DNA from: Prorocentrum cordatum
Taxonomy: Eukaryota
Assembly: GCA_963575745.1 (NCBI GenBank)
Contig: CAUYUJ010000037.1
Coordinates: forward strand, 496,001-560,000
DNA: 64,000 bases
Direction of reading: 5' to 3'
Positions 6,123 to 39,215 of the stretch are shown one piece after another. The first letter of the stretch is position 1; each line of letters starts with the position of its first letter. The position numbers and the translations under genes were made by a program. Under the pieces are notes generated by a model, which saw only the letters and a program-made list of their open reading frames with translations, was not told the DNA's origin and made no database searches.

Positions 6123-6282
6123 GGCTTGAAGTCACCTGGCGTGGGGGAGGCGCGCCCCCGCCCGCGATCCTGCGGCCAGGTTGGCTGCAGACATACTTGT
6201 GTGAGCTCCTGTCGGAGCAGCTCCCGTGAGGAGCACCGTGCCCTGTAACGACGTCCAAGATTTGCCTCCTGGTGCTCGCCCC

Positions 6283-7620
6283 ATGGCTCCTGCTCCAGCG
6301 GCCGTGCGACCTCCGTGGTGGAAGCTGCCGACCAAGTTCGTGTCCCCACCCTGGGGAGGTCAACAGAAGCAGCAGTGGCAGGCATGGCGAGACATCGGCT
6401 CCGACGACGACCTCGAGGGCTGGCACCAGGTGGGGCAATCTGGAGGAGGGCCGTGGTGCAGTAAGTGCGGTTGCAAGAAGAACTCCAAGGGCAGCAAGTT
6501 CTGCAAAGCCTGCGGCCATAAGCTCTCGGACATCAGCCCAGCCGTCGCTGCCGAACCCGCTGGGGTCTGGAGCGAGCAGCGTAGACAGCACGGGGATGCC
6601 GATGGCAAAGACGGCAAAGGCGGCAAGAAGGGCAAGAAAGACAAGGACTCGGGCAAAGGTGACGGCGGCAAAGGTGGTAAAGGGGGCCGTGTTGAGGGAG
6701 CAGCAGGCGGTGACCCAGCCAAGTTTCCTCGAGCACCTGGTGCACAGTTCCTGGTGGCCCAGGAGGGACCCTCGGTGGAGCTTGAGTTCCACGAGCTGGA
6801 GCAGCTGGTGGCCACGCTGGAGAAGCTGGGCGACACGGTCAGCCTCGCGAGGCACAGGCGCACCCTTCAAGAACGGCGACGACTCCAGCAGGAGGCGCTC
6901 TATGTGCCGCCATTGTCGCAGAGAGTCACGCAGGCCCACAAGCAGGTGCAGGACATCGCGCAGAAGCTGGAGAAGGCGGTGCTGCACTTCGAGCGGCTCG
7001 AGGAGGGCCTCGAGAGCCAGAGGCGGTGGGTCCAATCTCTTTGCGAGGACATGGAGTCAAAGAAGGCTGAGCACCGCAAGCTGGTGGTTGAGCTCAATCG
7101 TCAGGTGGTCGACATCAGCCAGGACTCAACTCAGTCAGTGGCCCCCATCAGTGTGGCTGGCATCCTGGACGGCTCCGTCGAGGAAATTCCTCTTTCGTTT
7201 GCTGGCCTTGGGTTCGACGACGAGGAATACGAGATGGATGCAAATGACAAGAAGGAGCTGGCAGATCGCAGCGCCCGCCTCAAGAGCGAGCTGTCCAACG
7301 CCGTCAAGCAAATGTTCGGGCAGGCGGCAGAGAAGGCCAAACTCTTCAAGGAGGAGCAGGAAGCCATGGCTCTACGGCTGGCTGGGAAGAGGCGGCGACA
7401 GGGTTCAGGCCCTGAAGACCCCGGCTCAGCAGGGGCGGCCGCTGCAGGATCAGCTCCGAGAGGCAAGGACGGCGAGGCAGTGGACCCCGACGCGACGACG
7501 CCGTCGCCTCCCTCCGCAGCCAAGCAGTCGCCCAAGGAGGAGGAGTCATCCAGAGACAACTTCGAGCAGACGGCGGCCAGGATCTGTCGCCCGCCGCCCC
7601 CTCAGGCGGACTCTGCCTGA
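6283..7620 (+). CDS. LINE-A ORF1 (445 aa): C4 zinc ribbon (RanBP2-like), G/K-rich linker, coiled coil
   Basis: First ATG after the SL (gccccATGG). Motif WCSKCGCKKNSKGSKFCKACG, a GKGGK tract and a heptad-rich E/K/Q/L region. Confidence 0.85.
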   Translation: MAPAPAAVRPPWWKLPTKFVSPPWGGQQKQQWQAWRDIGSDDDLEGWHQVGQSGGGPWCSKCGCKKNSKGSKFCKACGHKLSDISPAVAAEPAGVWSEQRRQHGDADGKDGKGGKKGKKDKDSGKGDGGKGGKGGRVEGAAGGDPAKFPRAPGAQFLVAQEGPSVELEFHELEQLVATLEKLGDTVSLARHRRTLQERRRLQQEALYVPPLSQRVTQAHKQVQDIAQKLEKAVLHFERLEEGLESQRRWVQSLCEDMESKKAEHRKLVVELNRQVVDISQDSTQSVAPISVAGILDGSVEEIPLSFAGLGFDDEEYEMDANDKKELADRSARLKSELSNAVKQMFGQAAEKAKLFKEEQEAMALRLAGKRRRQGSGPEDPGSAGAAAAGSAPRGKDGEAVDPDATTPSPPSAAKQSPKEEESSRDNFEQTAARICRPPPPQADSA

Positions 7621-7634
7621 GGGGGCAGACCCAG

Positions 7635-10600
7635 TTGACGCAGAGGCTGAGGGTGATCGGCGGACGCCCTTGGCCGAGGCAGCTGGATCTCTTCGACCAG
7701 CGGATCGTTTCTGGAGCAACAAGTCCGTGGACCTCGACTGGCCTCAAGTCGGGGGGTTTCGGGCCCCTGCCCTGGCCCGCCCAGACAAAAGGGACAACGT
7801 TGATCGGAAGGCAGTGCTGCAAGCAGCTGCGCGCCGTGCCCGAGGCAGTCCTGCCCGAGCCCTTGGGGCAGAGGCCTGCGGCTATGGGGCTCCCACCCGA
7901 TGCTGCAGATCCTGAGTGGCAGGCCATCCAGGACTTCAACGACATGAGGGCTGACCTCAGGGACTGGGCTGCCGCCTGGTTTGACTCTCACACGGAGCTG
8001 GAGACAGACAGCGGGCACTGGAGGCGCTGGTGCAAGGCTTTCCTGGGCGCGATGCTCGCGGACGGCGGGAACGAGCCGCTCAGGCGCCTACTGAGGATCG
8101 GGTTCCCAGGCTGGCACTTGGACAATATCCTGGACGAGCTGTGCCTCAGCGGCTGGAGGCAGTCAGAGCCCCGCCGCATTGCCTTTCTGGTCAGGCTCAA
8201 CAGTGCCCAGCCTCTGGATCGGTGGCGACTTGAGCACGCGCGCTGGAGGCAACTGGCGCAGATCAGGGCCATGTTTCGCCGACTACTTGGGGACAGAGCT
8301 CCTGGATACCCAGTGCCGCCTCAGAGGCCTGGTGGGGGAATGGAGTCGGACCCGACTCGTCGGCCTGACCCTGATGACGACCAGGCGATGGACTACGTCG
8401 ACAACCTGACGGCGAAGCTGCTCATGCTGTCGCACGCGCCCTCGCAGCAGCCTCCTGGCGGCAGGGCCTGCCCCAGCCAAGCCAACCTGCACGTGGAGCA
8501 AGCCAGCCTTGGTTCGCCCTGGTCAGCAAAGGGAGCCTCTTCGGTTTCGCGGACTGCTGTGTTAGAACGCATCCCTGGACAAACACGCCAGAGCAAGGTA
8601 AGACCTAGTCCCGAGTGCTCCTCGAGCTCGGGCCAGGCTCAGTCGCCACCCGCTGGATCAAGACCCTCGCCTGTCGGGGGGGTCGTGGGTTTTGCAGACA
8701 GTCCAAGCTGGGACTCAAGAAGCTTTCTCAACACCAGGGTCACGGTGGACACCCTGGGCCTCCGATCTGTCCCAGAGCTGCAGAACACCAAGGGGGACGT
8801 CTTGCCGCAGAGGGAGGGGCCGCTAACGCTCTGCTTGGCCAAGCTGGTGGCGCCGCCGGTGGCTAGCCCAGCGTCCTTCATCTCTCTGAATGGCACGACA
8901 TGGAAGGAGGCGCAGACGGAGCTTGAGCGCCTCTCGGACTCTGGCTTGAAGGACGATGTCTACCTCATCCAGGAGACGCGCTTCACGGGGAAGGAGAAGG
9001 AGAGCGAGGCCATCGGATGGGGCACTCGCAACGGCCTTAACGCTTCATTCAGCCCATGCAGGAGAACGGGAAGCTCGGCCCAGTCGGTGTCATCGGGGGT
9101 TGGCTGTCTTGTGGCGGCACACAGAGGATCAGCACCCGTGGACCATGACTGGGGTCCTTTCAGCTCGCGGCTTCTCGCTCGCAGGGTGGTATTCGGGGAC
9201 TTGATGGTGATCGTGGTCAGTGCCTACCTGGAGCACTCCGCCAAGATGACGGGCACAAACGTGGAGCTGCTGAGCGAGCTGCAGGTCTTCCTCAACTCTC
9301 AGTGCGAGCCCTTTATTGTGGCAGCTGACTGGAACATGGAGCCGCAGCTGTTGGAGAGCTCGTGGTGGCCGCGTTCGGTGGGCGGGGCAGTCGTGGCGCC
9401 CAAGTTTCCTACCTGCTCAGTGACCTCGGGGAACGATCGAGTATACGACTACTTCGTGATATCGGCCTCCCTTGCGGCTCTTAGCCCAACGGCAGAAGTG
9501 CTTCGGCCAACGTCTACACACCCCCATGCTCCAGTGCGTCTTACGTTCAGCAAGCTGGGGGCCCATGCCAAGGTCTGGGTATTGCGAGGCCCCAAGCGTT
9601 TCGACCTGTCGACGCACATCTCGGACGAGGACCAGCAGAAGGCAGTGGAAGACGCCCAGGACATAGTCTGGCAGGCGGCCCTGCCCGCTCCAGGAGTGGG
9701 GCCTGGCGAGGCAGTGCGAGAGTTCTTCGACAAAGCGGAGACCCACCTGATTGGCATGCTGGGTCTCAGTGACGGCCCCAAGTACCGTGGCAGGGCGGAC
9801 GGGCTCAAGCGGGTAGAGATCAGCCTCAAGGACTTCCAGCGTACTGAGACTTCCAGAAAGGTAAGCCCTGTGACGAGGTTGCGGCTTTCTCCCGGCAGGC
9901 TGGTCAAGCAACTCAGTGCGGCAGCTTCGGTCTCAGAGCCAGCAAAATGCCATGCGCTATACATGAAGCACCTGGAACGGGCGATCCTCTCACTGGCAGT
10001 TCAGTTCGACAGCTTGGGCAAACCGATGTTCAACGGCACCAAGATGGAGACGATAGTCCACGAGGTCAGGAGCGGCTCCATGGAAGGGCTGCAGGTGTTG
10101 AATGCCATCGCCAGGGTCACTGACAAGCACGTCAAGGGCGATGCGGCTGCAGCTAGGACCCGCTGGAAGGAGTTCGTGGACGAGTCGCTGGCGGGAGGTG
10201 GCCGTGGAGCTCATGCCATTAGCAAGAGGGTCCACGGCGAGGCGAAGCCGATCTTGGCGGACGGCAGCGGCGACTCGCCTCCCGTGCCACTGGTGGGCCA
10301 AGCGGCATTGGATCAGATGCTAGTGGGATGGAAGGCCCTGTGGAGCTGCGGGGACGGCCAGCAGACGAGGCCTGCTGACTGGATCACCACGTCGGACCTG
10401 CCCCCGATCACTGCAGAGCAGGTGATAGCGTCGGCGAAGGCGTTCGCGAAGAAGACGGCGCTCGGCTGGGACGGCTTCCACCCCAGGTTGCTGAAGATGC
10501 TAGGATGGCCCTTTGCGCAGCGCATGGCGGACGTGCTGACGCAATGGGAAAGGCACCCGCAGCCGACGGCGATGTTCACCACGCTCATCGTCTTCTTGGG

Positions 10601-13600
10601 CAAGCCTGGGGGAGGACATCGCCCCATCGGCCTGATGTGCTTTTGGCTCAGAGTTTGGGGAAGGATTCGCAGGCAGTATTGTTTACAATGGGAACGTGAC
10701 CACCGCCTTCCTGAGATATGGGGCAGCAGCTCTGACACCTGCTGCGATAGAGCAGCGTACTTGCACAACCTGTACCTGGGCCTCGCTCGGAAGGTCGGCT
10801 TCGAAGGGGTCTCGGTGTACTTTGACATTAGCAAGTTCTACGAGCGGATCGACCATGGGCTGCTGTTGAACGCGGCCGAGCTGAATGGTTTCTGCACAGG
10901 ATTGGTACGCGCGCTCTGCGTGGCGTACTCGGGCCCGAGGCGAGCTACGGCAGACGGCGCCGTCAGCGAGGAGATACATGCGAGGGGCACGGTCATAGCT
11001 GGCTGCTCGTGTGCAACAACGATGGCCAGACTCATGCTGATGGACCTTCTTGTCAAGAGCCGAGCCAATCTCCCCATCGGGAGGATCGTCAACGTGATTG
11101 ACGACATCTCGGGCAATGGTATCGGATCCAGAGGGGTGCTAGTCAGCCAGGTGAACAGCTTCGTCCAGGGCGTCGTGGCGATGCTGAGGGACAAGCGGCT
11201 GCCGATCAACTGGGGCAAGACGAAGGTGCTGGCATCCTCAGTGGACACCCAGCGCGAACTGATGAAGCAGGAGGGGTGGCCGCTGGACAGGGACGCCTTT
11301 GCTCAAGGACACCGAGATCTCGGTGGCGACGCGACGGCTGGGGGCCACCGTATGGTGGCGACGCAGGTCAAGCGGGAGTTGGATGCACTCCGTCAGGCAG
11401 CGAGACTGACACGCATCTTCGGGCCTGGGCTGCGGCAAGCCCGGGTGATGCGAGCTGGGCCGACCGCCAAGGCGCTCTGGGGCTCGGCCATCTCTGGAGT
11501 TCCACCTGGGCGCATGAGGGCGCTGAGGGTGGCCGCGGCGAAGAGCGCGGGTCGCCTGCCGCCTGGAGCGGCCCTCAGCTTTGCACTGCAGCGTGCGCCC
11601 CGTGGCTGGCGGCAGGACCCGCTGGTGGTCGCAGTGGGAATGGCAGCGCAGACATTCGTCAACGTGGTGTGGTCTGGGCAAGCCTCTGCTGCAGCCATCC
11701 AAGCGTGCATCCACAAAAGCCAGCAGGTGCTAAGCAAGCAGCGGCCTTGGAGCTCAGTCCGTCAGCCGATAGCGGCGCTCACGCTCACTCTGCAGAGGAT
11801 AGGCTGGCAGCTCGCCGTCGGCGGCACCAAGCTGCTGGACGAGGACAAGAGGGAGTTCGAGGTGCTGCACTTCTCGCCCGCTTTCCTGGCGGAGTGGGCC
11901 AGAGAGGCCACGAGGAAAGCGGCCGCGCTGGAGGAGGCTCGTGATCGTCCTGGATCGCTCTGGCCATGGAAGCTGCCGCCACAGTGGAGGCCAGTCAACG
12001 AGCTGCTCGGCAAGAAGGAGACGGAGACCTGGACTGGGCACCACAAAGGGTGCCTCCGCTGGCTCGTCTCGCTCGCACACTGGCCCCAGGACCGTCTTGC
12101 GAGGCACTCCTCGGACATCGACCCGATCTGCAAGCTATGCCAGGCTGCACGAGGAACGATGTTCCACAGGCACCACGTTTGCCCAGCTTGGGAACCTTGA
12201 CGGCGCGACAGGCTGCCGCCCGACTTGAAGCGTGCAGCTTGGGTAGTCCACGAGATGGGCCCGCCGTTCGATGAGCTGTTCTGCCAGGGCCTGTTCGTGG
12301 ATCCCTCCCAGCTGTTGCACCGCCCGTGCTGGCAGCCTCAATGGGAGCGGCTCTCGCATGGTTGGCATGAAGCAGTTGTGGTCGAAGACGGTGCCATGGT
12401 TTTCGCCGACGGCTCCTGTATCCTCGGTGAATTTCCCCGCCTGCGCAGCGCTGGCTGGTCGGTCGTCGTTCTGTCCAAGGAAGGGGCGATCCTAGCAGAG
12501 GCGTGGGGAGCTGTTCCCCCTAGTCTATGCCCATCGCAGACGGCACGTGCTGGAGAAGACTACGCAGCAGTGGTGGCGCTCACGCAGGTCACTGGCAATT
12601 ACCAGCTGCTGATCGACTGCAAGGGCACAGTGGGCTCGGCGCTCAACCTTGGCAGAGCTCAGGGCCCAACTTCGACCTACGCCCATCTTTGGGCCAGAGT
12701 TGGGGACGCCGCGGAAGGTGTGGAAGTCAAGCACATTCCTGCACATCGGTCAGAAGCAGCTGTGGCCAGAGGGGAGCTATCGGCTATCGAGCTCTCCGGC
12801 AACCGCCTAGCCGACAAGCGAGCGAAGGAAGGAGCCGCCCTCCACGCCCTTCCAGCCGACGAGGTCCTGCTCCTGGAGGGCTGCTTAGCCAGGGCTCGTG
12901 ACGCAGCCCGCTTCGCCGCAGAGATCGAGGTCTTCATCGCGGATTCTGGGATGCGAGACTGCTGGCCGACGGAAGCCTTGGACAACGTCAACCTCCAGCC
13001 GTACCTCTACCCGTGGAACCTGTCGTGCGAGTGCGAGGACTACGACTTGTTGGACGCCACCACGGCGCAGCGTGGCAGAGGCTCGGCAGCTGTGTCAGCG
13101 GCAGCCTTCGCCGCGGCGGCAGCGACCAGCGCAGCGGCCACAGGCGCTGCGGCAGGCGCCGCGGGCGGCGCAGCTGGGCCTGCTCGAAAGCGCCCAGCGG
13201 CTGCGCTGAGGGCCGCCTCCGCCCCAGCCGCCCCCATCGCTGTGGGGCCAGGCGAGGAGGGCAGTCATCGTGCTGAGGCAGCGAGCGAGGTGTTTGCCAG
13301 AGAGGTTCGGCGCAGGGCGGAGGCCAGGTCGGCAGCAGAGTCCTCTCAGCACACCCAGCTAGAGGAGCAACGCCCGTCACCTGCCCCCACGGCTGGACCA
13401 GAGCCATGGGTAGTGCACGGCCACAACATAATGCAGACAAGCGTGGTGAGCAAGCCGAGCGAGGCCATCCTGGTGTGCACGCGCTGCTTCATGTACTGCC
13501 ACCAGCCGCGGTATGCGCACAGGGGCCTGGCCAAGCCGTGCGTCGGTGGCGATCACAGATCGAGCCAAGGGTCGCGTGCTCAGGCCAGGACTGACTTCGG

Positions 13601-14060
13601 CAGATTGCGATTGCCAGGCAAGGAGAAGCCGCCGATCGTGATGCTCAAGTCGCCGACGTTGGAGGAGATGCAGCGCTGGCGAAGGTCGCTCAAGGTGGAT
13701 GACCTCCTGGCGGCGGCGCGGGCTGGCGGCCCAGGAGGCTCGCCAAGGCCTGCGGCTGCACAGCCTGCGGCGGGGCGTGCTGCTGGCGCGGATGTGCCTG
13801 CGGGCGGCGCGGCGGCGACTTCGGCGAGCGCCTCGGCAGCCGTGGGCGCGGCGGCGGTGCAGCCCGCGGTGCGCGCGGGCTTGCAGGAGCTCTCAGTGCC
13901 CGACCTGGAGGGCGTCCTCCGCGCGCACGGCTTCGCGTCGGCGGACGACGCCCGCGCCCGAGGGCGAGAGGCAGCCCAGGTGCGCGGGGAGCGTGACCGC
14001 GCGCTGGAGCGCGGCGAGGCGGCCCCGCGAGCGGCGAGGAGGCGGGGCCGACGCTGGTGA
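7635..14060 (+). pseudogene. LINE-A ORF2: APE endonuclease - reverse transcriptase - CCHC - RNase H - C-terminal zinc finger, with one in-frame TGA at 12198-12200
   Basis: APE motifs SLNG, IQET, SAYL, AADWN, YDYF, HPHAPV (about 8877-9540). RT motifs HRPIGL, FDISKFYE, GTVIAGC, VIDD, LGG. CKLC..H..C. RNase H motifs FADGS, GEDYA, IDCKG, HIPAH, GNRLADKRAKEGA (about 12400-12850). Track ORFs 7635..12200 and 12225..14060 are in the same frame. The true start is uncertain (first ATG 7884). Confidence 0.92.
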
Positions 14061-14196: not shown

Positions 14197-17100
14197 ATGC
14201 GGCATGATAATACATGTCTCTCATGTTTGGTGTTCGCGCCCAGGCGCAATCCGTAAACGCATCGCGGCTTCGGAGGTCGTGGTGCCCACGGGAACATCAG
14301 TGTTGGCACGGGGAGATCATTGCGTTTCGCGCGTCGAGGCCTGGGCCGAGGGAGGTTGCCCTTCTCCAAGGGGGCGGCGCGAGGGCGCGAGGGCGCGAAG
14401 ATCATCGCGCATCGCGGGGCGCGAGGGCGCGAGGGCGCGAGGGCGCGAGGTTAGGCGAGCTAGGTAACAGCGTGGGAAATGTCGCGCAGCTGCTAGGAGG
14501 CTCACAGGCGCTTGCAAATCAGTATTTCAATAATCGAGGCTTTGAGTTGCAACTCGTTCGCCCGCCGCGGGGAAGTGGAGCGCGAACATGACCAACAACA
14601 GCGCTAGCAGCCCTGTACGTTGGTCAAGCAATTCGTCGGTCTTGTCGTGTACCGTATTCCTACGTTCGTTTCCATCGGCATTGGGTTGTAGGACATCGCG
14701 CAATGTGGTCAAGTGCAAATGTAGTCTTGTCTTCACGAATAAGCAGAGCTCACGGATGGGATCAGCCTGCTCTTCAGAGCAAGGGCTCAGCGGAGCAATT
14801 CAAGATGTGTCTAAGCTGTTGTAATGCTGAGACATCGGGTCAGGCCTGCGTCGGTTTGATGGTGAGAGACCCATGCCACAACTTCGCCCTAGTCGTCAAC
14901 CCTTCCATCCTCCCTCCTCATAACGACTCAGAGTATTTATTTCACATTCGGGTATTGAAGCAACTTGAGATGAGGAGAAGGTGCTGCCGCGAGGCGGCCG
15001 CCGCGGCCGCCGCTGTGGCCTCGACGGTGGCCGCCGCTGCGGCCTCGATGGCAGCCGCGGCAGCGCAGCGCCTGCCGCGCGGAAGGTGCGGAAGGTGCAG
15101 GTCGAGGGAAGCCCTTTCCGGCCTCGGCTCCGAACGGCTTGGAACGCGCGCGTTGGGGAGAGGGACGCACGGCGGAGGCGCGAGGACAAGGGCACGCTTC
15201 CCAGTCGCGGGCGCCCCCGCTGCTTGCCCGCTCGCGCTGGCCTTGGCGCTCCCATTTCCCGTTCTCCCCGCTCGCCTCCTCCTGCCCCCTGCCCCCCTGC
15301 CCTTCCCCCCCCTGGGGGGAGAGTCCAGATCCCCGACGTCGTGATGTTTCACAACCCGCAGGTCCTGGCGTGGCGTTTTTTCACAACGGGGGGTCTTGCG
15401 TTGTTTCGGTGCCCAGGATCCTTCTACGACGTTTTCAATTTTGCTCGGAACGTCGGATCTCAGGGCACGTGGTCCCAGGGACGTCTCGACCTGACCCTCG
15501 GGTGTGGCTCTTCATCCTGAGCCGTTCTTCGACGGACCTGGGGCACGGCGAGGGCCCCTGGAGGCCGTTCGGGATGATCCTGGCATCCCCGGAACGCCCT
15601 CGGCGAGGCGCAGCTGCTGGAACGCACCCGAGGCAGGAAATCCGCCGCGAATCGACAGAAGCGTCCGAAATCCTGAGTAGATCGACCCCTGGGGGCTCTC
15701 CTGGGATGTGTACGGACCGGAATTTCGAGGCGGCCGGTCGGGGTGATCGGGGCGAGGCGCAGCTGCTGGGAAGCCTCCCGATAGGCGCGACAGCCTCCGA
15801 AAACTTCGCGACGGGCGCGACGGCACGAGGTGCCCGGACGAGGGCAGCGGGAGCCGCCGTGGGGCGCGCCGGCTCCGCGCCCAGGACCTTCCGCAGCGGG
15901 CTGCCTCCGAGAAGGGCGCGCGAAAGGCGCCTGGCCCGCGAGCGCGCCCGCCGCGCGCCGGCCGCAGCGCCGGGGTGGAGCCGTGGCCCCTGGCGGCGGG
16001 CTCGCGCCGCGTCTGGGCGGCTCGGAGGGACTCGGCGTGCCCCCAGAAATCCAGCGCATTGGCAGCATCCGGGCGGCGGTCGTTTCGCCGCATTTGGCCT
16101 CGGGAGGCCTTCGCCAGAGCCCGGGACAGTCCAACGACGCAGGATGAAAGGCCGCCCCTGCCCCCCCCCCCGGGAGGGGGTCGGGACTGCTGGGGACCCC
16201 GTGAAAAAACAAGACATCGCATCCTGTCCGAGCCCTGAGGCCCAGGCGCTGCAAGTTTTGGGCACCAGGCGTTTTCGCCCGGCGTCGGGTCCCGGGACCA
16301 CCACAGATCGATCCAGCACGAAAAATGCGGCAGGAAGACTGGGTATAGGGCTCTGGCTGAGGTGTTTCGCGATGTTGCATGTTTTCCGCAGCGTCGGCTC
16401 TCCGGGTGTACACCAAGTCGCTTGGTCCGCCAGGGAGACAAGAAGCTTGGCAAAGGAGTGCGGCGTATGGACATTCCAGCGTCACACGGGTCAGAAAGTT
16501 GGGGCGTCTCTACACCGGGCGATTTGGTGTATCCTTCGAGCCCCTCCCAGCGGCGGCGGCCCTGGCCACGGCGCGGACGCTTTCAAGCGGAACGCCACCG
16601 GTGGCCCAGATTCAGCTGCTATCGCACGATCTGCGATAGTGGAAATCGGTAACGTTCGAACTGGGTGCGGCAAAAATATGCACAAAGACCAACAGAAGTG
16701 GCTGTCCGTTTTGGAGAATAAAACGTTGTCGGTGTCGCCGCGGACGTTGTCCATGTGAGACAACAAGTGTCCTGCCCAACAGCGTCCGCTATCGGATTTG
16801 GACAACATTTGCTGCTGGGCATTGTGGCCCCTTTTCCGTCCCATTTCGGGCGCGCCAAGGAAAGCCGCAGTCGTTCAATATTCGACGATCCACGCACTGT
16901 CATAGACCAACGCCGGCGTCATCGCGAGATTGGCCTGCCGTACACCAAGGGGCCCATCGACTAATTATTGGTTCGCCCGGGGGAGTGTGAGGGGCTGGGC
17001 TCCCCCAGTTGGGGCTGGTCGGTCTTCCTTAGAATTAGAGTTGACGGCATCAGCATGAATGTTGGCCAGCGTATTGGCGGGTTCTTGGGCTCTCGAAGTG

Positions 17101-27710: not shown

Positions 27711-28489
27711 ACCCGCACCAAGACCGGCTCGAGAGCGTTCGCAGGCGCAGCTGCAAAGACAACGACACCTGCGCGGAGGCCGCGCAAGGCGTGTCTGACC
27801 TGGACGGCCGGACCGGCTCCTTACGCCCAAGGACAAGTGCTGGGGAAGTTCTGGTTCCATATAAGTATACGATGTAGTACAATCTGAATTCGTCGGGGGT
27901 TAACCCGAAAACCTGCAGGTTCAAGGAGAAGAGCCATTGTTCCCTTCCCCCGCTGCCACGGTGGAGGGGGGACTCGAGCACGTAGGGCCGCAATGTTTGT
28001 TTTCCAAGGAAAACGCTGCGGTTCACAGTTGGGAAGGGGCAAGCGTCGGAAGTGGCAGGCCCTGGTGGTGAGTGCACCTGTTGGCCTTGTCGGGTGTTGC
28101 CGACGGTGTTTTTGGCCCAGCGTGTCCCCAGGATTTCCCGGAAGCCCCCCACGGCATCCAAACACCCGTCATGAGGCCCAGAGGGCCCTAGGGCTCTAGG
28201 AGCTACAGAGTAGCACGAAAGGCTGAGGGCACCTCAGGCCACCACCTTCGGGCCGGACGAAAGGGTAGGATAGGGAAACGGGGGGGGGGGGGGGGGGAAA
28301 CCTGTTGCATGCAGCTGGTTTCGGCCGCCTCGCCGGGCCTGTTCTTTCTACATGGGCGCCTCCTGGCTCCAGGAGGCGCCAGGAAAACCAGCTGCGTGAG
28401 CTGATCATCTACCATGCCCGTTGCTATCCTACCCTCTCGTCCCTCCCCGGCACCTCTAGCAACCCCCGACTCTGCGTCCCCGGCGGCAG

Positions 28490-28624: not shown

Positions 28625-30149
28625 GACCGGCCACTCCCCCCCCTCCCCCCTCCCGAACCTCCTCCTCCACCTCCGCCTCCTCTTCCCCGCTCCTCCCCAC
28701 GCCCCGTCCTCGTCCGCCTCATCCTCCTCGTTTCCTGCTTTTGTATCTCACGTTTTCGGTGGCAGTGCTATCCGATTCGCGGTGCCAGCGAGCTGCGAGG
28801 GAGGTGGATATACGGTCAGCATTTCGCTGGGGGAGTACCAGGGCAGCCCTCGCGATGGCAGTTGTGGTCTTTACCCCCCTGGCGAACCGACCGATTTCGA
28901 CACCACTCGAGAGATCATCGATACGATGGGTCATCCCCGGGGGTACGGAGCACAGCTCCCCCAGTTGTGGCTGGTCGGGCTCAACAGCAGCACGCTGCGA
29001 GAGTCACCTGTTCCTAGGCCGTCTCTGCGGAAAGTGAGATGGCTACATGGGCGAGGAAATTGCCAATGAGTTCCCCCCCCCGTGTGATATTTCCCCCCTT
29101 CCTCGCAGGAGCCGCCCCCAGCGAAAGACGCCCTGCCCAAAGAGAACATCTGGGTTCAAGGCTCGGGCCCAGGACCGACAGCGTACCCACACGCATACAC
29201 ACACACACATACACACGCACAAACACGCGTGGCATTTTGACCAGGCAAACCCATGTGTACGCGTACGGCAGGTTGGCACCGCGTCGACGCGGCGGCAAAG
29301 CCAGCGCAGGCGTTTAAGGCTGAATGCCCCCAGTGGCCCAGAATCCATATCGAGCGATCAGCGCCACCTGAAGCCGCGATCGGTCGAACGACCACGCGGT
29401 GTCGGAATCCAACGCCCCGTGCTGGTATTGGAGAGGCCTGACGGCCGGTGCCGCCGACCCTGATCGAAAGGGCTAGGAGTGGGGGGAGGAAGCGGAGCAT
29501 GAGGAGGAGGAGGAGGAGGAGAAGGAGGAGGACATTTTGGACATTCTGGACAATGAGGGCTCATGGGCAGCCACACGAGTGACATTATCACACAACATGT
29601 ACAAGCACTATGCGAGCACACTGATGACAACAAAAAGAGAGCAACGAGGGACCCCATCACCTCGCCGCAGAAAAGAGGCCTCCTGCTGGAACGGCCCGCC
29701 GAAGACCACGGCGGTACCTCGCCAGCTCTCGGCGGCGGGCGATGGCCTGCCGCAGCTCGGCGGTGATCTCCACTCGGGCGGGGGGGGAGGAGGAGGAGGA
29801 GGAGCGGGGTGGGGAACCCAGGGATCCCCAGACGCCTCTAAAGCCCTCAGCATTCCCTCCTCGGCCCAGGGGTCGGGTTCGTCAGGCCAGAAATCCCCGC
29901 CCTCAACCACCTGGGGCACAGGAAGGGGCTCAGGACACGGCACATCATCACGGTCCTGGGGGGCTAGAGGGACAGCAGGGCGGTCAAATCTGTGGTCCCT
30001 GGGCCCCCGATCACTGAAACCAGCAAAGTCAAGTGCAATATTTTCATTGGGTGCTGCAGCAGCATAGGAGTCGAGGGCCTGAAAAAACTGGCTCAGTCCA
30101 TCAGGAAGATCTGTGGGATCCAGGGCTTCACGGTCACTTAGCCGATAAG

Positions 30150-30940
30150 CCTCAGAAACAAACTCTGATACTGCACGCCCCATTGCTGCACATAGCGCCT
30201 GAGGGTACCTTTTTGGGGGAGCAGTCCTCCATTTTCCTGTATCAGGATCAATACCCAGTAAAGTAGTGTGGGTGTTCTTTGGGTGGTCGCATCTTCCCCC
30301 TCTTCCCAGTCCCTGGATTTCGTCCCCGATGGAGTCGAGTCTTATGCAAAGGAACGTCGTTGGGGCCTTACTGGTCTGTCCGAAACACATTGATCGAAAC
30401 TGAAGGTTCGCGAGGGAGGGGCAGCACACAAGGCCCGCGCCGTTGCAGTCTGCCACGAGTTGGGAGCCCGAGGTCCCCAATGGGCCTCCTCAGGATGCTC
30501 TTTCAGTGCACACGCACCAACCTCCAGGCAGGTCAGCATCAACTTGTGCTGGCTCAGCAGGAGCTGCGTTCCAATTGAGAGCTGCAAATGGTGACGACTC
30601 GAAACGTCAGGACGTCCCCATCTATGTTTAAGGGTACGAAGAGGGGCAGGGGGGCGGGATCGATCAGCAACTCGTAGCTCCTGCCATCGCGCAGCTGACC
30701 ATGTCTCACATGGCGGGCCTCCTATGAGTCCTATAGCACGGCCTGATCTCAGGAGCTCATCCCACTTCTGCACAATATCTTCACGGGTAAGGTCACCATT
30801 CACCTCATCACATGCCACAGCACAGTAAATGATAATGACAGTCACGGGCCCATGGACCAGTGCACGCTCGAGCTCCTCCTGCACATCTCCTGTCCTCCGT
30901 GCTCCTGAGAACAGATGTAAAAAGGCAAGCACAGCATACT
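30150..30940 (-). other. C5-cytosine DNA methyltransferase domain within LINE-B ORF2
   Basis: Motif I-like LHLFSG (30912-30904), catalytic GGPPC (30722-30708), EHP (motif VI-like), FDQCxFG...KAPT and C-terminal YPQALCAAMG. Confidence 0.85.
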
Positions 30941-33900
30941 GCAGTGGTCGTGGACAGCGCTCAGCCGCTGGTCCGTCATAGGCTAGAGGTTCAAATTCAT
31001 GTTCATCTTCCAGAGGGGGCTCACATCGGGGTACTTCACTCTGGACCTCCAAGATGGGCTCTGGGGCCTCTTCGTACTGGTAGTCCATACTACGTACGAC
31101 CTGCCAGGCCTCCACATAGGGCAACTGGGAGGCTTGGGGGGGCATTCCGAGGTCCTGGCACTCGATAGGCGGGGAGCCAGGCTCCCCGACGCATGGCCCC
31201 TTTTTGTCGGGCCCGTTTCCTCTCAGAAGCCTCCAAGGCACGCACCTCCTCCAATACCTCCGAAGCCTCAGGGCTCAGGAACAGGAGGGCCGAAATGAAG
31301 CAATTGGGGTTGCCATGCGCCAGGTGGTCAATGCTTAGTTCCACAGAGCTGAACCGAATCAGACAAATAGGGCATGTACTACTGTGTATATATCTGGCAG
31401 CAACATCACGTTGTCCATGATGTAGTCGGGCAATATGAGACTTGACTGCTGCACACTTCGGGGACAGGAACGGGCAAAAGGGGCAGCGATGCACAACAGG
31501 CACAGGAGCAGGTCGCAGAGACAGATCTTGCGGCACTCCAATACTAGCAGCGTGCTGAAAAAAAAACTCTTGCGTGCGTCGCCTGGCATCCTCGGTGCGA
31601 CTGGCCCAACGGATATGTGATCCAATTCCAGATCTGACCAAGTTCGCCCAGTGCTGCCCCCTTCCCGTGATCTCCTTCTCCCATGGCCCAAACTCCGAAA
31701 ACGGATTTGGAAACTCACGAAGCCGAGAAACCCGAGTACGTAGCCACCTCAAATCATTCAAAACCATGTTGAACCATGAGTGTTTCGGCTCGGACGTAGC
31801 TCGAATCAGCCCAAAGAGAGCCCCATGAGCGTGCCTATACAGACGGGTAAGGTAACGGAGACGGTGCCATCGCATCATAATATCCACGTCGCACTTGTTA
31901 GCCAGTGCCAAAATGGTCTGGTCTGTCTCAGCATCCTCATCGTAGGCCGGCCGTCCGAGCGCAGCCCGATAGATGCGGATGATGCCAGCGCGGTACTTCT
32001 TAAACTGCGCAGCGGTCGGGCTCGACCACGTAGCCGCAGTGTAGAGTCTGCCCGAGAGTATCAGTACGTCGGACAGCTGCAGCTTGTGCTGCACTGAAAG
32101 CTGAGGGTTCGGAAACACTGTCTGCCGTAGCGCCTGCAGCGACGACGACGTCGAGGAAACCCGATAGGCCGGCTCAGGGGCCATGTCCTGCTTGTCCGAG
32201 ACCATGCCCCCAAGATGTTTGTACGAGTGTACAGCCTCCAAAGACAGGCCTTGAGGAAACGTGCGGGTACCAGGAATACAAACCTTACCCTCCTCCTCAA
32301 ACCAGAACTGCTTGCGGGCCGAAACCGAGCCAGGTCCTCTAAAGGTGACCAACAAGGCCGTCTTGGTGGGGCCCACATTGATCTTGAGGCCCGCGGGGGT
32401 GAAGGAGTCCGCCACGATCGACACGAGCGTGCGAGTTCGTTGTATAATGGAGCCTGCTGGGCCCCAAGCATTGAAGAGGCTGTCATCGCTGTGCTCAACG
32501 TCATTGACATAGATCTTCGTATCACACTTGGCCAGGGGGTCCAGGGTCCTGGCCGAGGGAATATCGAGCTCCTGCTGGAGCCCAGCAGCCACCAAGAGGT
32601 CCCACGTCTTTCGAATACACCTGGACACGATGAACAGGAAGAGCTGGGCCGCCAACGCGTTGCCTGGCCTGGCCCCGGTAGTCATGATAGCTACTTCTCC
32701 AGAGCCCTGTGTCGTGGCCCATGTCCCCGACAAGGTCTCCGCCAAGATGCGTCGAAGGTGCGCGGGGACCTCCAGTTCCTCAAGCAGCGGTGGCTGAACG
32801 AGCTCCGCTGCATGTAGGTCCATGCAAGAGGGCGGCAAACCTGATGCATATAATAGTTGTGCAACACGCTCATCAGAAATCTCCTCCTCTCCTTCGAATC
32901 GAATGAGAATCTCTTGAACAGCATGATGGGAAGCGGCCTCCAGGTCCACGAAGAGCGTCGACATCGACTCCGGTCGAATGCGAGAGAGCTCCTGCATAAG
33001 CCGCACCGTGTGGACAGCAACGTCAGTCCCACGTCCCTTGATGCCCCCACATTGCGATTCAGGTGCATACATATCTAGAAAGGGCTGAAGGCGCCCTGCG
33101 ACCAGAGCATGTGCACGCTCACCCACCTGGGGCCCTATGGCCACTGACCTGCTGGAGGCGCGCACATTGGGCTGACCTCGACCCTTGTGCAGATCAGCCA
33201 GTCTCGAGCTTTTCCACTGTATAGGTTCATGAATACACATCATGTACTTCAGCACTACGGGAAAGTAGAGACGGGCACATTGGGTAGAGCACATACGTAG
33301 GATAGCCCCAGGCACACAGCCCACACCATTCGCACAAGCGCTCGAGGTCTTCAGCAGTTGCTGTTCAAACATAGCAAGCGTCGGTAGCATCTTCGCCGCC
33401 GAGTCATCAATCTCAGCCAGCGGGTAGCTAGCTTCTCCTACAAACTGCAGCAGGCTGGCGGCAGGTACACGAAAACCAAGCCCCTGCTCCGCAAAGTGTT
33501 CCAGCCATCGATCTCGCCCAGCAGTTGGCGTTAAAGCAGGCGTGCCATTCTTCAATAGAATCTGGGCTGATTGGCTGGCAGGTCGCTTCTTGGCTGATCC
33601 GACTCCCAGCGTCCGTATCTGGCTAAAGGCTTGTCGAAATTCTTTCAGGAGGAACGAGCTGGCAATGTCTTTCGAAGTCTGCTCCATCTTGGCAGCCTTG
33701 TCCAGGTCACACGACCAGCTAACCAGGCGAGAGGTGAGGTAAGTCATGTTGCTGCTCATAGGCTTCATAAGGCCATACCACCCTCTAAGTAGATCAAGAT
33801 ATTTGGCTGTCGGTGGAAGCTGTATCCCCAGAATATCAGGGACACGAGCCAGCTCTTGACGTAGGGTAAACAGATTGTCCCAGTCAGGAGTCCGAGCGAG

Positions 33901-36125
33901 CCGACGACAATCAGGAAGGTGCCGTCGGGCCAGCACCTGAAGGACGTCAACCTGGGACCGAAAATCCTCCATGAGCCTCCAGAGCTGCTGTCGGTACCTC
34001 ACCCCTCGGACACCATTAGATCCGCATCGGATCCGTAGCCTGCCCCAGACGCCCTCGTGCTCCTGGTAGCCCTCAGACGCCCAAGCATGAAAGGCCACTT
34101 GGAGGAGCACACGAGGGGCCTTTCGAGTCCAACGTCTATACATATTTCTAAGATGTTTCCGTAGTTCGAGGAGCTCCAATGTTCTTTCCTTTACCCAGTC
34201 CTGACGACGCGGGTCTTCTGGCATAAGATGCTCTCGAGCAAAGGCTGCTAGATGCGCATCCACTCGTGCGCAGTGCGCAGTGGCCGACTCCGACCAGGCT
34301 GGCTCTTGGAACGCAGCCACATGCTTGTCAAATGCTGCACGCACATCTGGATCTCGTAGCCGTTCAGCTTGCACACGCAGCTGCGGCCATCTGTATTGAT
34401 AGACATCAAGTTATCCTGACGGCACGCCGACAGAGACAAAGGTAGCACTGTGATCCTCGACTGCATTAGCCAGATCCACTGTGTGGTCTACCTGTGCTTG
34501 TCTCACAGCACCTAGCCAGTCCTGTGGGATCAGGACATAATCGAGCCTTTTTTTTCTCCTTCCATTCGTGCGCACATGCGTATGATGGGAGTCCCCAGGA
34601 GGCGCTGGAATGAAGGTGGACGGGGCGATGACCTGGAAGCGATGACAAAATGCTCGCATGCAAGTCCCTGAGAAATTCTCCTCGGCCGCCTCAACGTCTC
34701 CAATCTGGGGTGAGGTCCGGGACCCCACCTCTGCATTGGCATCTAGCAGAAACATTGGGTGCACACCAGGTATGAGAAAGCTTCTAACAATATTCTGAGT
34801 ATCTAGCCACCATCGTTCAACCATGGCAACATCCTTACGCGCGCAGTGCGGAGCATGGGCCGCCACAAGCAACAGATGCAGCCCAGGAACGTGCAATCGT
34901 AGCACCAGCCGACTCTCATCGGCGTAGAGCTGCGAGATGCGTTGTCTTCCTGGCTTGGTGCCTTTCACGGGCAGGTCCGCATTGATCCAGATAGCCACGC
35001 CATCAGATCCATTATCAGCACACCTGGAGTAGTACATCATATAGTCTCCGACCCTCCTGGGTAAGGCTGTCTGGAGCCTCGTTTCCAGAACCCCAAGTAT
35101 GTGGTATTGCGCGGTCGCAAACTGCTTGGCCAGAAGCGCGATACGCCCAGGGGCATTTAAGCCGATAACCTTCAGGAGCCCTGAGGACCTGCTGACCTTG
35201 CGGGCACTCTTGTACCTTTGGGAGCCCTGGAGGGTCAGCACGTTGGCCACGCCAAACTTACATACACTCAGGTCCTGGGAGGGGACAACATCTGCGATGC
35301 ACTGGGCCCCGATCACATCCTGGACCTGGTACCCCTTCGAGGCCACATCTGTGACCCTCAAGGCATTAGACTCTGTGATGGACGGCAAACCTATGGTGTT
35401 CTCCTCATAAAGCCACGCCCACGGAAGAGCAGACGAGTCAAAAAGAAGAGAGACAAACGGCATACACTCCATGCTCGGCATCAGGCCCATGCCCGTCAGC
35501 CGCGCGAGCGTGTCAGCAAATTCATTGTATCCCTCACCCCTATGACTATGAACGTGCTCCCCATCCACGGTACAGGGGACCGACAGAAACTGGACCAGGG
35601 ACCTGAAAAATACAAGCCCAGAGTTGCCCACCTCGAAGTTGTTCGTACCCTTCACAACCCCAAGAGTTCGCATCGAGTCCAGTCGGAGCACTATGGGCAC
35701 ATTGCCCAAGTCAGCCTGTGCAATCCATGCTAGGGCCCAGGCCGCTGCAAGAATCTCAGCCGTGTCAGAGTGGAAGCTGGAGGGGAAGAGACCCATCACA
35801 TCCTCGGGGACCAGGTCCGAGATCACTCCCTTGAGCGCACGCGAACCATCACAGCACTCATACACAATAACCACAGCCGACGAAGGCACGAACGAGATAT
35901 CAGCCTGCTGCGCCCCACCTGTTCCATCCGTATATATCAGGACACGCGAAGGGGGGAGGAGGGGGAGGTATGGTACATGCTGCTGCAGCACCTCCACAGT
36001 GGCTGGGTGGAGGTACTCAGACAAAGCACTCTCACACAGCTGATGAACTTGAAATGGCCAAGGCCGTCGAATCGACTCAACGGCTGCTATGACAGGTAGG
36101 AAATCAAAATCTCGGGCCTTCATTC

Positions 36126-36210
36126 GCGGCCACTGGTCAGGGGAAGTCAGATGAGGATCATGATGATCATCAGGGCCTCCACGCTGGGCAGTGGCCGCTA
36201 CTTGTTTCCC
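36126..36210 (-). promoter_or_regulatory. Candidate -1 programmed ribosomal frameshift cassette (ORF1 to ORF2)
   Basis: G_GGA_AAC (36210-36204) is in the ORF1 frame, one codon before the TAG. It is followed by a 5-nt spacer and a perfect 10-bp stem GCGGCCACTG (36198-36189) / CAGTGGCCGC (36135-36126). ORF2 is in the -1 frame. Confidence 0.65.
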
Positions 36211-37568
36211 GTCCGTCCACGCTGGCGGCTGGGCTCCCTCTGCTGGCTGACACTGCGGCGGGCATCCTGGCGCGGCAGACTGGACTCGCGTCTGGGCGAT
36301 CTGCTGCCCGCGCGTGTCGCCACACCGTCCGCCGCAGCCGTCGATGCTGCTGCCGCCTCCGCCTCCGCAGCCGCCGCGGGGGCGGTTGGTGGGGGAGCCT
36401 CCGCGGGTACTGCCGCAGGCACGGCCCCTCCCGTCGCAGGGGCCGCTCGGGCTGCCGGCGCCGCTGCACCAGCCGCCGCCGCTCCCGCCGCAGCGCCGCC
36501 GTGGTCCTCCGTCGCGAAGGTCACGCGCTGCTGCGGCACAGGGGTGTCCAGGCCCCCTCCTGCATGTAGCTGTAGCTGGTGAATGACACCCTGAAAGCCC
36601 TGCAACTGCGCCATCATGGCCGAGATCTGGGCCTGATGTGCTGCCAGCGCGCCCAGCGCTGTGACCGATGGCGCAGGTCCACCATGAGCCCCAGGAACTC
36701 CATGAGCAGCAGGTGGTCCAGCATGCGTCCCCGCAGCACCAAGCCCAGGACTCGGCTGGGCGTTTGCCGCACGCTTGGCACCTTCTCCTTCGGCCGCGAT
36801 CAGGATCTTGAGCTCCGTGATCGTCTTGTTCATGTGGTCGAGATCGCGGCGGGCTGTCTCGACATCGATATTGGCCTGCTTCACCTGCGTCTGCAGATCG
36901 TCCAGCACATCCTGCTCTTTCTGCAAGCGCTTCTCGGCCCGTTCTTGAGCTTCCTCCTGCTTGCCGAGCTGTGCCTTGAGGCCTCTTGCACTGAACAGCA
37001 TTGTCAGCGTCGTGGCAAACTCGAGCACTGCATCGTCGTAGTCCTCGCCTGCATCGAGCCTGTCGAGGATGATCGTATTCAAGGCCTCGAGCCTCGCCGA
37101 GACCTGCTCCTTGTACGCCTCCACCTCGGAGTCGGACGCCTGTGCCCCAGGCGGCGCCCTCCATCTCGGATGTTGGCGAGCATCTCGAGGTAGTGCTGGC
37201 CGTATGTGTAGTAGGTCCTTGGCAGACCTGTAGTCGTCGGACGTCAAGGCACCAGACTCCTGCTGCGAGAAACTCTGGTCCTTCTCCTTGTCCTTGTCCT
37301 TGTCCTTGATGAGGATGCCTCGAGATGGCGAGGCATTTCGTAGTGCACGCATAGCCTTGTCCTTCCCTCCTTTGCCCTTGCCACGGGCTGCTTCTCGAAC
37401 AGGAGGTGCACTGTCCGAGCGGCGGGATGGACGTCGCCATGGAGGCATCTCGGGCTTCGGCGTACCACACTGACGGCAATCCACCCGCTCGTGCCAGTTG
37501 GAACAGAAACAGACCGAGCACGCCCATGGTGATCCTGGAGGAGACCACGGCACTGCTGACTTTCCCAT
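36198..37568 (-). CDS. LINE-B ORF1 (456 aa): RanBP2-type zinc finger, coiled coil, Ala-rich and RS-rich tail
   Basis: First ATG after the relict SL. Motif WACSVCFCSNWHERVDCRQCGTPKP, then a long E/Q/K/L heptad region and RSPRRESS. Confidence 0.85.
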   Translation of the reverse strand: MGKSAVPWSPPGSPWACSVCFCSNWHERVDCRQCGTPKPEMPPWRRPSRRSDSAPPVREAARGKGKGGKDKAMRALRNASPSRGILIKDKDKDKEKDQSFSQQESGALTSDDYRSAKDLLHIRPALPRDARQHPRWRAPPGAQASDSEVEAYKEQVSARLEALNTIILDRLDAGEDYDDAVLEFATTLTMLFSARGLKAQLGKQEEAQERAEKRLQKEQDVLDDLQTQVKQANIDVETARRDLDHMNKTITELKILIAAEGEGAKRAANAQPSPGLGAAGTHAGPPAAHGVPGAHGGPAPSVTALGALAAHQAQISAMMAQLQGFQGVIHQLQLHAGGGLDTPVPQQRVTFATEDHGGAAAGAAAAGAAAPAARAAPATGGAVPAAVPAEAPPPTAPAAAAEAEAAAASTAAADGVATRAGSRSPRRESSLPRQDARRSVSQQREPSRQRGRTGNK

Positions 37569-37834
37569 GGGTCCTGGCCGAGCGGGTCCTTGAGGCTGAC
37601 GACTGTGGTGTCGTTGTAGCAATCTTCTGGCCGCCGCAAGGCGGAGGATGACACGGGCGGCAGCACGGCACGCCCTGGCCCTGCGGTGCCACGCGGGCTC
37701 ACACGCACGCCCTGCGTGGCGCACGGGGCCTGCACGGCCACGAGGCAGCACTACGATGGGCTGCACGTGGCGCGTCTTGCAGCAGTCCCGGAGGTGAGGG
37801 GCTCGCAGTTACCTGGTAACTGCACCCAAGGCCC

Positions 37835-37859
37835 CTCGAGCCGGGACGGCGGCTAAGGA
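37835..37859 (-). other. Decayed spliced-leader relict at LINE-B 5' end
   Basis: Minus strand reads TCCTTAGCC-GCC-GTCCCGGCTCGAG against TCCGTAGCC-ATTTTGGCTCAAG. All five differences in the 3' 13 nt are transitions, and it sits exactly at the element/microsatellite boundary. Confidence 0.6.
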
Positions 37860-38236
37860 GGAGGAGCAGGAGGAGGAGGAGGAGGAGGAGGAGGATGAGA
37901 AGGAGGAGGAGGAGGAGGAGGAGGAGGAGGAGGAGGAGGAAGTGCATCCTTTGTGTGCCCGCTCGAAGAAAGTGCGCCCCGGGAGTGTGATATTCTGACT
38001 TGGGACGTGCTCCCGGAAGAGGAAGAAGTGCATCTCGGGCGTGCCCGCTCGAGGAAAATGCGCCCTAGGGGGGTGGTATTTTGACTCGGGGCCCGCTCCC
38101 GGGACGCCTCTGCGGGAGGAGGAGGAGGAGGAGGAGGAGGAGGAGGAGGAGGAGGAGGAGGAGGAGGAGGGAGGAGAGGAGCAGGAGGAGGAGGAGGAGG
38201 AGGAAAAGGAGGAGGAGGAGGACCAGGAGGAGGAGG
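37856..38236. repeat. (GGA)n tracts interleaved with a short repeated unit (aagtgcatc...gtgcccgctcgaggaaagtgcgccc)
   Basis: Direct reading; three copies of the unit at about 37940, 38026 and 38236. Confidence 0.8.
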
Positions 38237-38939
38237 AAGTGCATCCCGTGCGTGCCCGCTCGAGGAAAGTGCGCCCCGGCGGGCGTCGTATCTGCCCCGC
38301 CCCCCCCCCCCTCCCCCCCCCCTGCGGGGAAGGGATCAAAGGGAAGGGGCTTCCCTTCGACTCCACTACGACGTCGTTGAATTTCGTTTTGGATAGCGCG
38401 CTTCAGGAGGAGAGCCCTGGGAGGGGGAGAACGGAGACGACGGAGACGACGAGTCGAACGGAGAAACCCCTCACACACGCCGACAGGGTCGGCGGTGTTT
38501 TTTTTTCGTCCGCGGCCTTACGGTGCGCGTGCGATCAGGAACCACGCGCACGGACACGTGCACACTGGCTGCAGACTTCGAGCCTCAGGACCTCGATGCT
38601 GCATCTCTGCAAAACCACGCGCATCTCTCTGGGATTCGACGTTGCGAAAAACTCAGCATCGCCGAAACTCACGGCCCGAGCCCTAGACCCCATCTTTCTG
38701 CGGCATGTTTCTAGCCATATCGATGAATAATGGCCCTAGGGCCCGAAAAGCGGGCAAAAACGCCTGGTGTGCAAAACTTGCAGCGCCCGGATCTAGGCTG
38801 AACGCCGCGATCGTTCGGGTGACCCACGTGGCGCCACCGAGGCGTGAGAGCTGCAGTGCGGGGTGGCATCCCCAGCCCAGCCCGGCCAATGAGGGGGCCA
38901 TGTCTTTTCATTTTTCGTCGGAAGATGGACCTGAGCTGG

Positions 38940-39215
38940 TGCGTCGGTTTGGCGGCTATGTGGCCGCCGTCGCCGCCCCGCCGTCGCCTCGTCGCCGCCC
39001 ATCGTCTGGGCCTGTGTGTCGGTCTGGCGGCTATGTGGCCGCCGTTGCCTCCCTGTCGACAACTCGTCGCCGCCCATCGTTTGGGCCTGTGCGCTGGTCT
39101 GGCGGATATGTGGCCGCCGTCGCCACCCCATCGACGCCTCGTCGCCGCCCATCGTTTCGGCCTGTGCGTCGGTCTGGCGGCTATGAGACTACCGCCGCCG
39201 CCCCGTCGACGCCGC
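38940..39215. repeat. 75-bp tandem repeat (about 3.5 units)
   Basis: ggcggctatg recurs at 38951, 39026, 39101 (ggcggatatg) and 39176. Confidence 0.9.

Follow-up and report, generated by a model that had tools for sequence, protein, structure and literature searches.

A correctly built −1 frameshift cassette, judged from its sequence, at the ORF1 end of an RNase H-APE-RT non-LTR retrotransposon whose ORF2 frame is stop-free over ORF1

How the ORF2 of a LINE is translated when the RNA is bicistronic has been asked for a long time. Older suggestions held that insect LINEs with overlapping ORFs might frameshift, and the heptamer GGGAAAC is used by retroviruses and luteoviruses; SART1 and L1 are, to our knowledge, without a canonical slippery site. 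In excerpts of the LINE literature, ORF2 translation is described as reinitiation-like or as unknown (PMC5009743, PMC3894237, PMC2881922), with one account calling the initiation unknown and of a novel type (PMC5009743) and another naming reinitiation or an IRES as the candidates (PMC3894237). The combination of GGGAAAC with a structure 5-8 nt downstream is given, in an excerpt of one paper, as the PRF signal of PEG10, PNMA3, PNMA5 and Rtl3 (PMC11299033). In the extracts returned by a full-text literature search, no report was found of a canonical −1 PRF signal in a non-LTR retrotransposon.

The element described here, LINE-B, is a non-LTR retrotransposon on the minus strand of the 64-kb stretch of DNA that was analysed (the window), with its products in the order RNase H-APE-RT (Table 1). 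Judged from its sequence, the 85-nt feature at the end of its ORF1 is a correctly built −1 PRF cassette. As far as the excerpts describe the signals of PEG10, PNMA3, PNMA5 and Rtl3, the cassette has the same heptamer in the same phase, followed by a structure 5 nt on and placed before the stop of a gag-like ORF, with a −1 frame that encodes enzymes. It differs from them in its non-LTR host and in having a plain extended hairpin, with no support for a pseudoknot. The pol frame of LINE-B is also open and AUG-initiated from about 1.4 kb upstream, in contrast to a short gag-pol overlap, and the LINE-B sequence described here is that of one copy.

The likeness to the described LINEs is of another kind. 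LINE-B shares with the UAAUG coupling of SART1 and with L1 a bicistronic organisation, a structure past the ORF1 stop and an ORF2 in a different frame, so far as the excerpts of the respective papers go (PMC3894237, PMC2881922, PMC10275272, PMC5009743). Unlike in SART1, the stop and the AUG of LINE-B are 75 nt apart and are joined only by the hairpin, and LINE-B carries a canonical slippery site, which these excerpts do not mention for SART1 or L1. The pararetrovirus shunt, as outlined in an excerpt of PMC3542737, resembles LINE-B in having an ORF whose end is at the base of a stable hairpin and a start codon immediately past that hairpin; however, the upstream ORF of LINE-B has 456 codons instead of a few, and LINE-B is not a pararetrovirus. 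With dinoflagellate LINEs, including SymbioLINE-Dnmt, LINE-B has RT homologs and a methylase-like motif in common (PMC5890265, in part), and its identity to dinoflagellate-type relatives is 21-30%. In SymbioLINE-Dnmt, according to the same excerpt, the DNMT is in an ORF upstream of the RT ORF, whereas the methylase-like domain of LINE-B is downstream of the RT and its ORF1 is a zinc-ribbon/coiled-coil protein, unlike the DNMT-bearing upstream ORF.

Table 1. Positions of the features of LINE-B and LINE-A within the 64-kb window
Feature	Position	Strand	Remarks
Stop-free ORF2 (−1) frame overlapping all of LINE-B ORF1 (ORFx)	36124-37698	−	First ATG 37527-37525, accATGg
LINE-B ORF1	36198-37568	−	456 codons from first ATG at 37568; stop TAG 36200-36198
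RanBP2-type zinc ribbon in LINE-B ORF1	~37526-37467	−	Pfam Zn_ribbon_RanBP, E=0.0035, under the family cut-off
Slippery heptamer G_GGA_AAC	36204-36210	−	In ORF1 phase X_XXY_YYZ; ends 3 nt before the stop codon
LINE-B hairpin	36126-36198	−	73 nt, −36.9 kcal/mol, closed by a perfect 10-bp G+C-rich stem
Candidate separate ORF2 start ATG	36121-36123	−	2 nt past the 3' arm of the hairpin; context cgaATGa
ORF2 N-terminal part, RNase H then APE endonuclease	34414-36123	−	
In-frame TAA between APE and RT	34411-34413	−	Relatives continuous here
ORF2 C-terminal part, reverse transcriptase and C2H2-type zinc fingers	31090-34410	−	Stop TAG 31092-31090
Conserved C-terminal domain with GPPCETWS	29611-31088	−	Read in the frame of ORF1; opens with an ATG 1 nt past the ORF2 stop
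LINE-A	6205-14057	+	Unrelated to LINE-B by BLAST; ORF1 zinc ribbon/coiled coil, APE-RT-zinc finger, RNase H
LINE-A hairpin	7596-7626	+	14-bp perfect; contains the ORF1 stop TGA 7618-7620

The 3' end of LINE-B ORF1 reads ACG GGA AAC AAG TAG. The 5-nt spacer AAGTA (36203-36199) separates the heptamer from the stem, whose 5' arm, GCGGCCACTG, lies at 36198-36189 and whose 3' arm, CAGTGGCCGC, lies at 36135-36126 (minus strand); the loop inside the 10-bp stem is 53 nt, and the G of the TAG stop codon is the first base of the 5' arm. The same inverted repeat was recovered independently by a repeat search. ORF2 is in the −1 frame relative to ORF1, and this frame is open through the heptamer. A phased heptamer, a stem 5-9 nt after it and an open −1 frame encoding enzymes, the canonical sequence components of a eukaryotic −1 PRF site, are thus all present. 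The first-pass annotation had described this anatomy: a phased G_GGA_AAC at the end of ORF1, a perfect stem of 10 bp that begins 5 nt past it and encloses 53 nt, and a −1 frame running on into RNase H-APE-RT. The heptamer was found at 36210-36204 in ORF1 phase, the stem was confirmed both by its coordinates and by the repeat search, and the coding content of the −1 frame was borne out by Pfam matches in relatives and by invariant catalytic residues. The pseudoknot prediction that the annotation had proposed gave no support, since the pairing between the loop and downstream sequence was equalled by 233 of 300 shuffles. Readthrough of the UAG at the ORF1 stop is ruled out as a route to ORF2, the zero frame meeting a TGA 16 codons on.

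Strict slippery heptamers number 200 in the 128,000 positions of both strands (0.0016 per position), and ORF1 contains no other than the GGGAAAC at 36210-36204, whatever the phase. The window was also scanned for perfect stems of at least 10 bp with loops of 3-80 nt, which gave 40 seed starts per strand. Such a stem begins 4-9 nt after 0.26% of 7-mers and 4-9 nt downstream of 3 of the 200 heptamers, and that of LINE-B alone is at an ORF junction. A GGGAAAC at 28295 (plus strand) with a 10-bp stem 5 nt after it was considered and rejected as a parallel, as it adjoins a poly-G run and is non-coding. With a stem placed at the stop, a spacer of workable length (5 or 8 nt) results from just two in-phase positions of the heptamer, and the probability of a chance heptamer at those two positions, estimated from the heptamer frequency, is ~0.003. 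The joint chance of a phased heptamer and a correctly spaced stem at one ORF junction is ~1e-5 to 1e-4.

In the folding analysis of the hairpin, the 126-nt region has a fold z of −3.27, with 1 of 200 shuffles as stable, and the hairpin window is the third most structured of the 1,545 80-nt windows of LINE-B after correction for GC. The antisense strand of the hairpin folds at −41.3 kcal/mol, against −36.9 kcal/mol for the sense strand; because the antisense hairpin is equally stable, folding is silent on the strand. An Rfam search gave only two matches, both sub-threshold (E = 0.42 and 0.79).

A hairpin at the ORF1 stop is also found in LINE-A, where it is stronger than that of LINE-B: it is the most structured window of that element (z = −3.97), and its fold z is −4.06, with 0 of 200 shuffles as stable. 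Perfect hairpins occupy 2.2% of the window, the ORF1 stops of LINE-A and LINE-B are both inside one, and the chance that two unrelated LINEs would both have a hairpin on the ORF1 stop is ~5e-4. The ORF2 of LINE-A is again in the −1 frame, and LINE-A has no slippery heptamer. Because LINE-A thus has a stop hairpin without a slippery site, a hairpin at the ORF1 stop recurs here and does not require a part in frameshifting, and that of LINE-B may serve another purpose. LINE-A also has a stop-free frame over its ORF1, in this case the +1 frame (6230-7912, plus strand), with 0 stops against 4-6.7 expected (P = 0.001-0.004). This frame passes the ORF1 stop and ends 26 nt after the first AUG of ORF2 (7884), an overlap that may point to a stop-restart hand-over to ORF2. 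Elsewhere in LINE-A, a single in-frame TGA at 12198-12200 (plus strand), followed by CGG, lies between the RT/zinc-finger part and the RNase H, and the region after it is moderately structured (z = −1.87); this TGA could be a lesion or a readthrough site. Outside LINE-A, the segment at 15438-16582 (minus strand) and 14974-16755 (plus strand) is 69% G+C and has three minus frames and one plus frame open for ~350-590 codons; the plus-strand ORF at 14974-16755, the one of these ORFs that was scanned, matched no Pfam family.

If the cassette of LINE-B works as its anatomy would predict, a ribosome translating ORF1 would pause at the 10-bp stem while GGA occupies the P site and AAC the A site. In a minority of cases it would then slip back by one base (GGA to GGG, AAC to AAA) and read on through ...RTGN-QVAATAQR... 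in the frame of RNase H-APE-RT, so that the product would be an ORF1-ORF2 fusion with the predicted junction peptide ..RTGNQVAATAQR.., while unslipped ribosomes would stop at the UAG two codons later. We hold tentatively that the cassette may be a working −1 PRF signal, a reading that seems plausible to us though somewhat short of probable.

The ORF1 open frame is 1,611 nt long, and beyond its zinc ribbon the predicted protein has a coiled-coil-like middle and a basic tail rich in Ala, Gly and Pro. By codon usage the ORF1 frame outscores the off-frame models by 136-164 bits and is the primary coding frame as far as the TAG; the coding statistics of the final 100 nt of ORF1 and of the 75-nt spacer are too weak for a decision. 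Upstream, the 5' region of LINE-B has repeated units, ~89% alike, at 37856-37982 and 38153-38279 (minus strand), which contain (CCT)n runs and one ATG each and may be tandem 5' monomers.

The state of the −1 frame over ORF1 bears on how the cassette is to be understood. Across the 456 codons of ORF1 this frame has 0 stops, against 16.8 expected when codons are shuffled globally (none of 5,000 shuffles as low), 12.7-14.6 expected from shuffles within blocks of 10-40 codons (0 of 1,000 as low) and 14.4 expected from a synonymous shuffle (0 of 1,000 as low). None of the 77 ORF1 codons ending in T is followed by AA, AG or GA, though these begin 22% of codons. Controls within ORF2 are without such depletion (28 stops against 26-28 expected, and 50 against 54.6), and the depletion in LINE-B ORF1 is the strongest among the 47 ORFs of at least 250 codons in the window, save for the overlapping ORF pair of LINE-A. 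Because codon usage makes ORF1 the primary frame, the −1 frame is one that is kept open and not simply the coding frame. Its potential products matched no Pfam family and had no homolog among the 150 relatives. The AUG of ORF1 at 37568 is in the context cccAUGg, and the next AUG, at 37527 in the −1 frame, is 41 nt on in the context accAUGg, with no AUG between. A weaker first AUG, a next AUG in another frame and an overlapping frame that is open beyond chance, as leaky scanning calls for, are found together at this locus. The open-frame signal is statistically stronger than the cassette, and it is left unexplained both by frameshifting at the ORF1 stop and by restart at 36123.

The first-pass annotation had also named initiation of ORF2 at the ATG at 36123 as a finding that would tell against a fusion. 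One alignment bears on this. An 84-residue peptide (P0163) is 70% identical to LINE-B over 83 residues, and its initial Met aligns to ATG 36123. As support for a start at 36123 this alignment is weak, given that the first ATG is where ORF callers begin and that a single shared residue is likely at such identity. Protein searches across the junction returned only three fragments (P0162, P0163 and P0164), which start at or after ATG 36123; none spans the junction.

More distant relatives are numerous. The RT part of LINE-B has 4,325 homologs at E<=0.001, a Symbiodinium protein being among the named ones; the fragments with the highest identity, 58-83%, are peptides labelled Pyramimonas sp. by EukProt. 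Among the best 150 of the 4,325 RT homologs, 75 have a match in the RNase H-APE part as well, and 0 have one in ORF1. These matches begin at or after residue 83, counted along the −1 frame with the Met at 36123 as residue 70. No second copy of LINE-B was found within the 64-kb window (blastn of 30001-39000; tblastn), and no related DNA was found in the metagenome, genome-contig or viral-contig collections scanned. The family is multi-copy, at 90-99% likeness, in one sequencing run, X1, with 1,387 contigs (72/499/600/216 by likeness class). Among the 40 of 915 differences that were listed for these contigs are 1-nt indels at 36396 and 36403, and none of the 40 falls within 36126-36210. Contigs of the same run are listed as stopping at 36140 and 36220, and the depth is lower in that bin; we draw no inference from this.

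The enzymatic part of LINE-B is that of a recognizable element which has suffered damage. The relatives match the Pfam families RNase_H, Exo_endo_phos, RVT_1 and zf-C2H2, and the residues of ORF2 that are invariant in a 22-sequence alignment include N294, E347, D461, N463, D557, H558, D1060, D1213 and D1214. With APE and RT domains, their catalytic residues and an ORF1 upstream, LINE-B is classed as an APE-type non-LTR retrotransposon. The in-frame TAA between APE and RT is a lesion of this copy, and a frame break lies at ~30390-30400 (minus strand) inside the conserved C-terminal domain. The frames of LINE-B are not fully trustworthy because of this TAA and at least one frame break. Six more distant relatives (P0012, P0081, P0050, P0032, P0071 and P0098) have the C-terminal domain continuous in frame with ORF2, and in dinoflagellate-type relatives it is joined to the RT. 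The domain has the further motifs LFSG..R.GD and EHP, and is faintly like a C5 DNA methylase (Pfam PF00145, E=0.066; M.HaeIII in the PDB, E=1.9). In the region of the ORF2 stop of LINE-B there is a change of frame at 31086-31092 (minus strand).

The cassette and the open frame are not both explained by any one mechanism. With an inert cassette, the heptamer would be a coincidence of ~0.3-0.6% beside a hairpin with another role; with the cassette as the sole route, the open frame would be a coincidence far below 1e-3. An account by leaky scanning alone, in which 40S subunits pass AUG 37568 and start at AUG 37527 to yield, without recoding, an ORF2 protein with a long overprinted N-terminal extension, has several points for it: there are zero −1-frame stops over ORF1 where 12.7-16.8 are expected, the ORF2 controls lack such depletion, the two AUGs are adjacent with contexts that fit (a pyrimidine at −3 in the first), and the ORF1 of LINE-A likewise has a stop-free alternative frame. 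It leaves the hairpin with some other role and makes the phased and correctly spaced heptamer fortuitous, at the ~0.3-0.6% just given. The composition and codon usage of the overprinted frame are also off-frame-like, with no homolog among the 150 relatives; the strong second AUG would give much ORF2 protein, and plentiful ORF2 protein is unusual for a LINE; and the evidence is from one copy, the stop-free frame of LINE-A being a different one from its ORF2 frame. Leaky scanning as the whole explanation is possible but doubtful. A hairpin-assisted, shunt-like termination-reinitiation, in which the 40S subunit restarts at AUG 36123 to make a separate ORF2 protein, would put the geometry of the hairpin to use, since the stop UAG and AUG 36123, 75 nt apart, are both at the foot of one hairpin, the stem opening on the G of the stop codon and the AUG lying 2 nt beyond it. 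AUG 36123 has no other AUG ahead of it in its frame over 1 kb, is 64 codons before the DG motif of RNase H and is aligned with the first residue of P0163, while homology to distant relatives starts 13 residues past this Met and never upstream. Excerpts on SART1 state that restart at its ORF2 needs RNA structure downstream of the ORF1 stop (PMC3894237, PMC10275272), and an excerpt on plant pararetroviruses describes shunting from a short ORF that ends before a hairpin (PMC3542737). Within the window, the LINE-A ORF1 stop also carries a hairpin, and the ORF2 stop of LINE-B is itself followed, 1 nt later, by an ATG that opens the C-terminal domain. However, such a restart again leaves the heptamer as a fortuitous ~0.3-0.6% coincidence and does not account for the lack of −1-frame stops upstream; restarting behind an ORF as long as 456 codons is described as inefficient without special factors (PMC3894237, in excerpt); the AUG context, cgaAUGa, is poor; and identity at one residue is likely by chance at 70% likeness, particularly as callers use the first ATG. 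We consider reinitiation at 36123 to be distinctly unlikely.

It may also be that the feature is without function and that the heptamer and stem, along with the −1 offset itself, are accidents of a decayed G+C-rich copy, for example through an indel in the low-complexity tail of ORF1. The in-frame TAA, the frame break at ~30390-30400 and the frame change at the end of ORF2 show that this copy is damaged, X1 contigs have 1-nt indels at 36396 and 36403, and coding statistics are too weak to decide over the 75-nt spacer and the 3'-most 100 nt of ORF1. Yet the joint chance of the heptamer and spaced stem at the junction (~1e-5 to 1e-4) and that of the stop hairpins in two unrelated LINEs (~5e-4) are small, and both frames are open over 500 codons, which is beyond what a single indel can produce, so that we judge pure accident to be very improbable. 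At the other extreme, the LINEs here may keep a second stop-free frame across ORF1 that carries ribosomes to ORF2, with LINE-B having two designed entries, leaky scanning and PRF; such a general arrangement is unlikely. On present evidence we think that the cassette is not the sole access to ORF2. The claim of the first-pass annotation that LINE-B makes a Gag-Pol-like fusion by PRF has therefore stood in part: the anatomy agrees with every sequence criterion that can be tested on one copy, whereas four results count against PRF as the sole or main route. Because the ORF2 frame, beginning with an AUG, is already open close to the element's 5' terminus, the role of the cassette would be to supply an additional fusion product or to determine a ratio. 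If the cassette is a working −1 PRF signal, it is most likely one of two entries into the ORF2 frame.

If the cassette works, LINE-B would be the first case of a Gag-Pol-like ORF1-ORF2 fusion encoded by a canonical signal in a LINE. The stop-free ORF2 frame over ORF1 points, in addition, to a different, undescribed route to the ORF2 protein, an overprinted frame that would be entered by leaky scanning.
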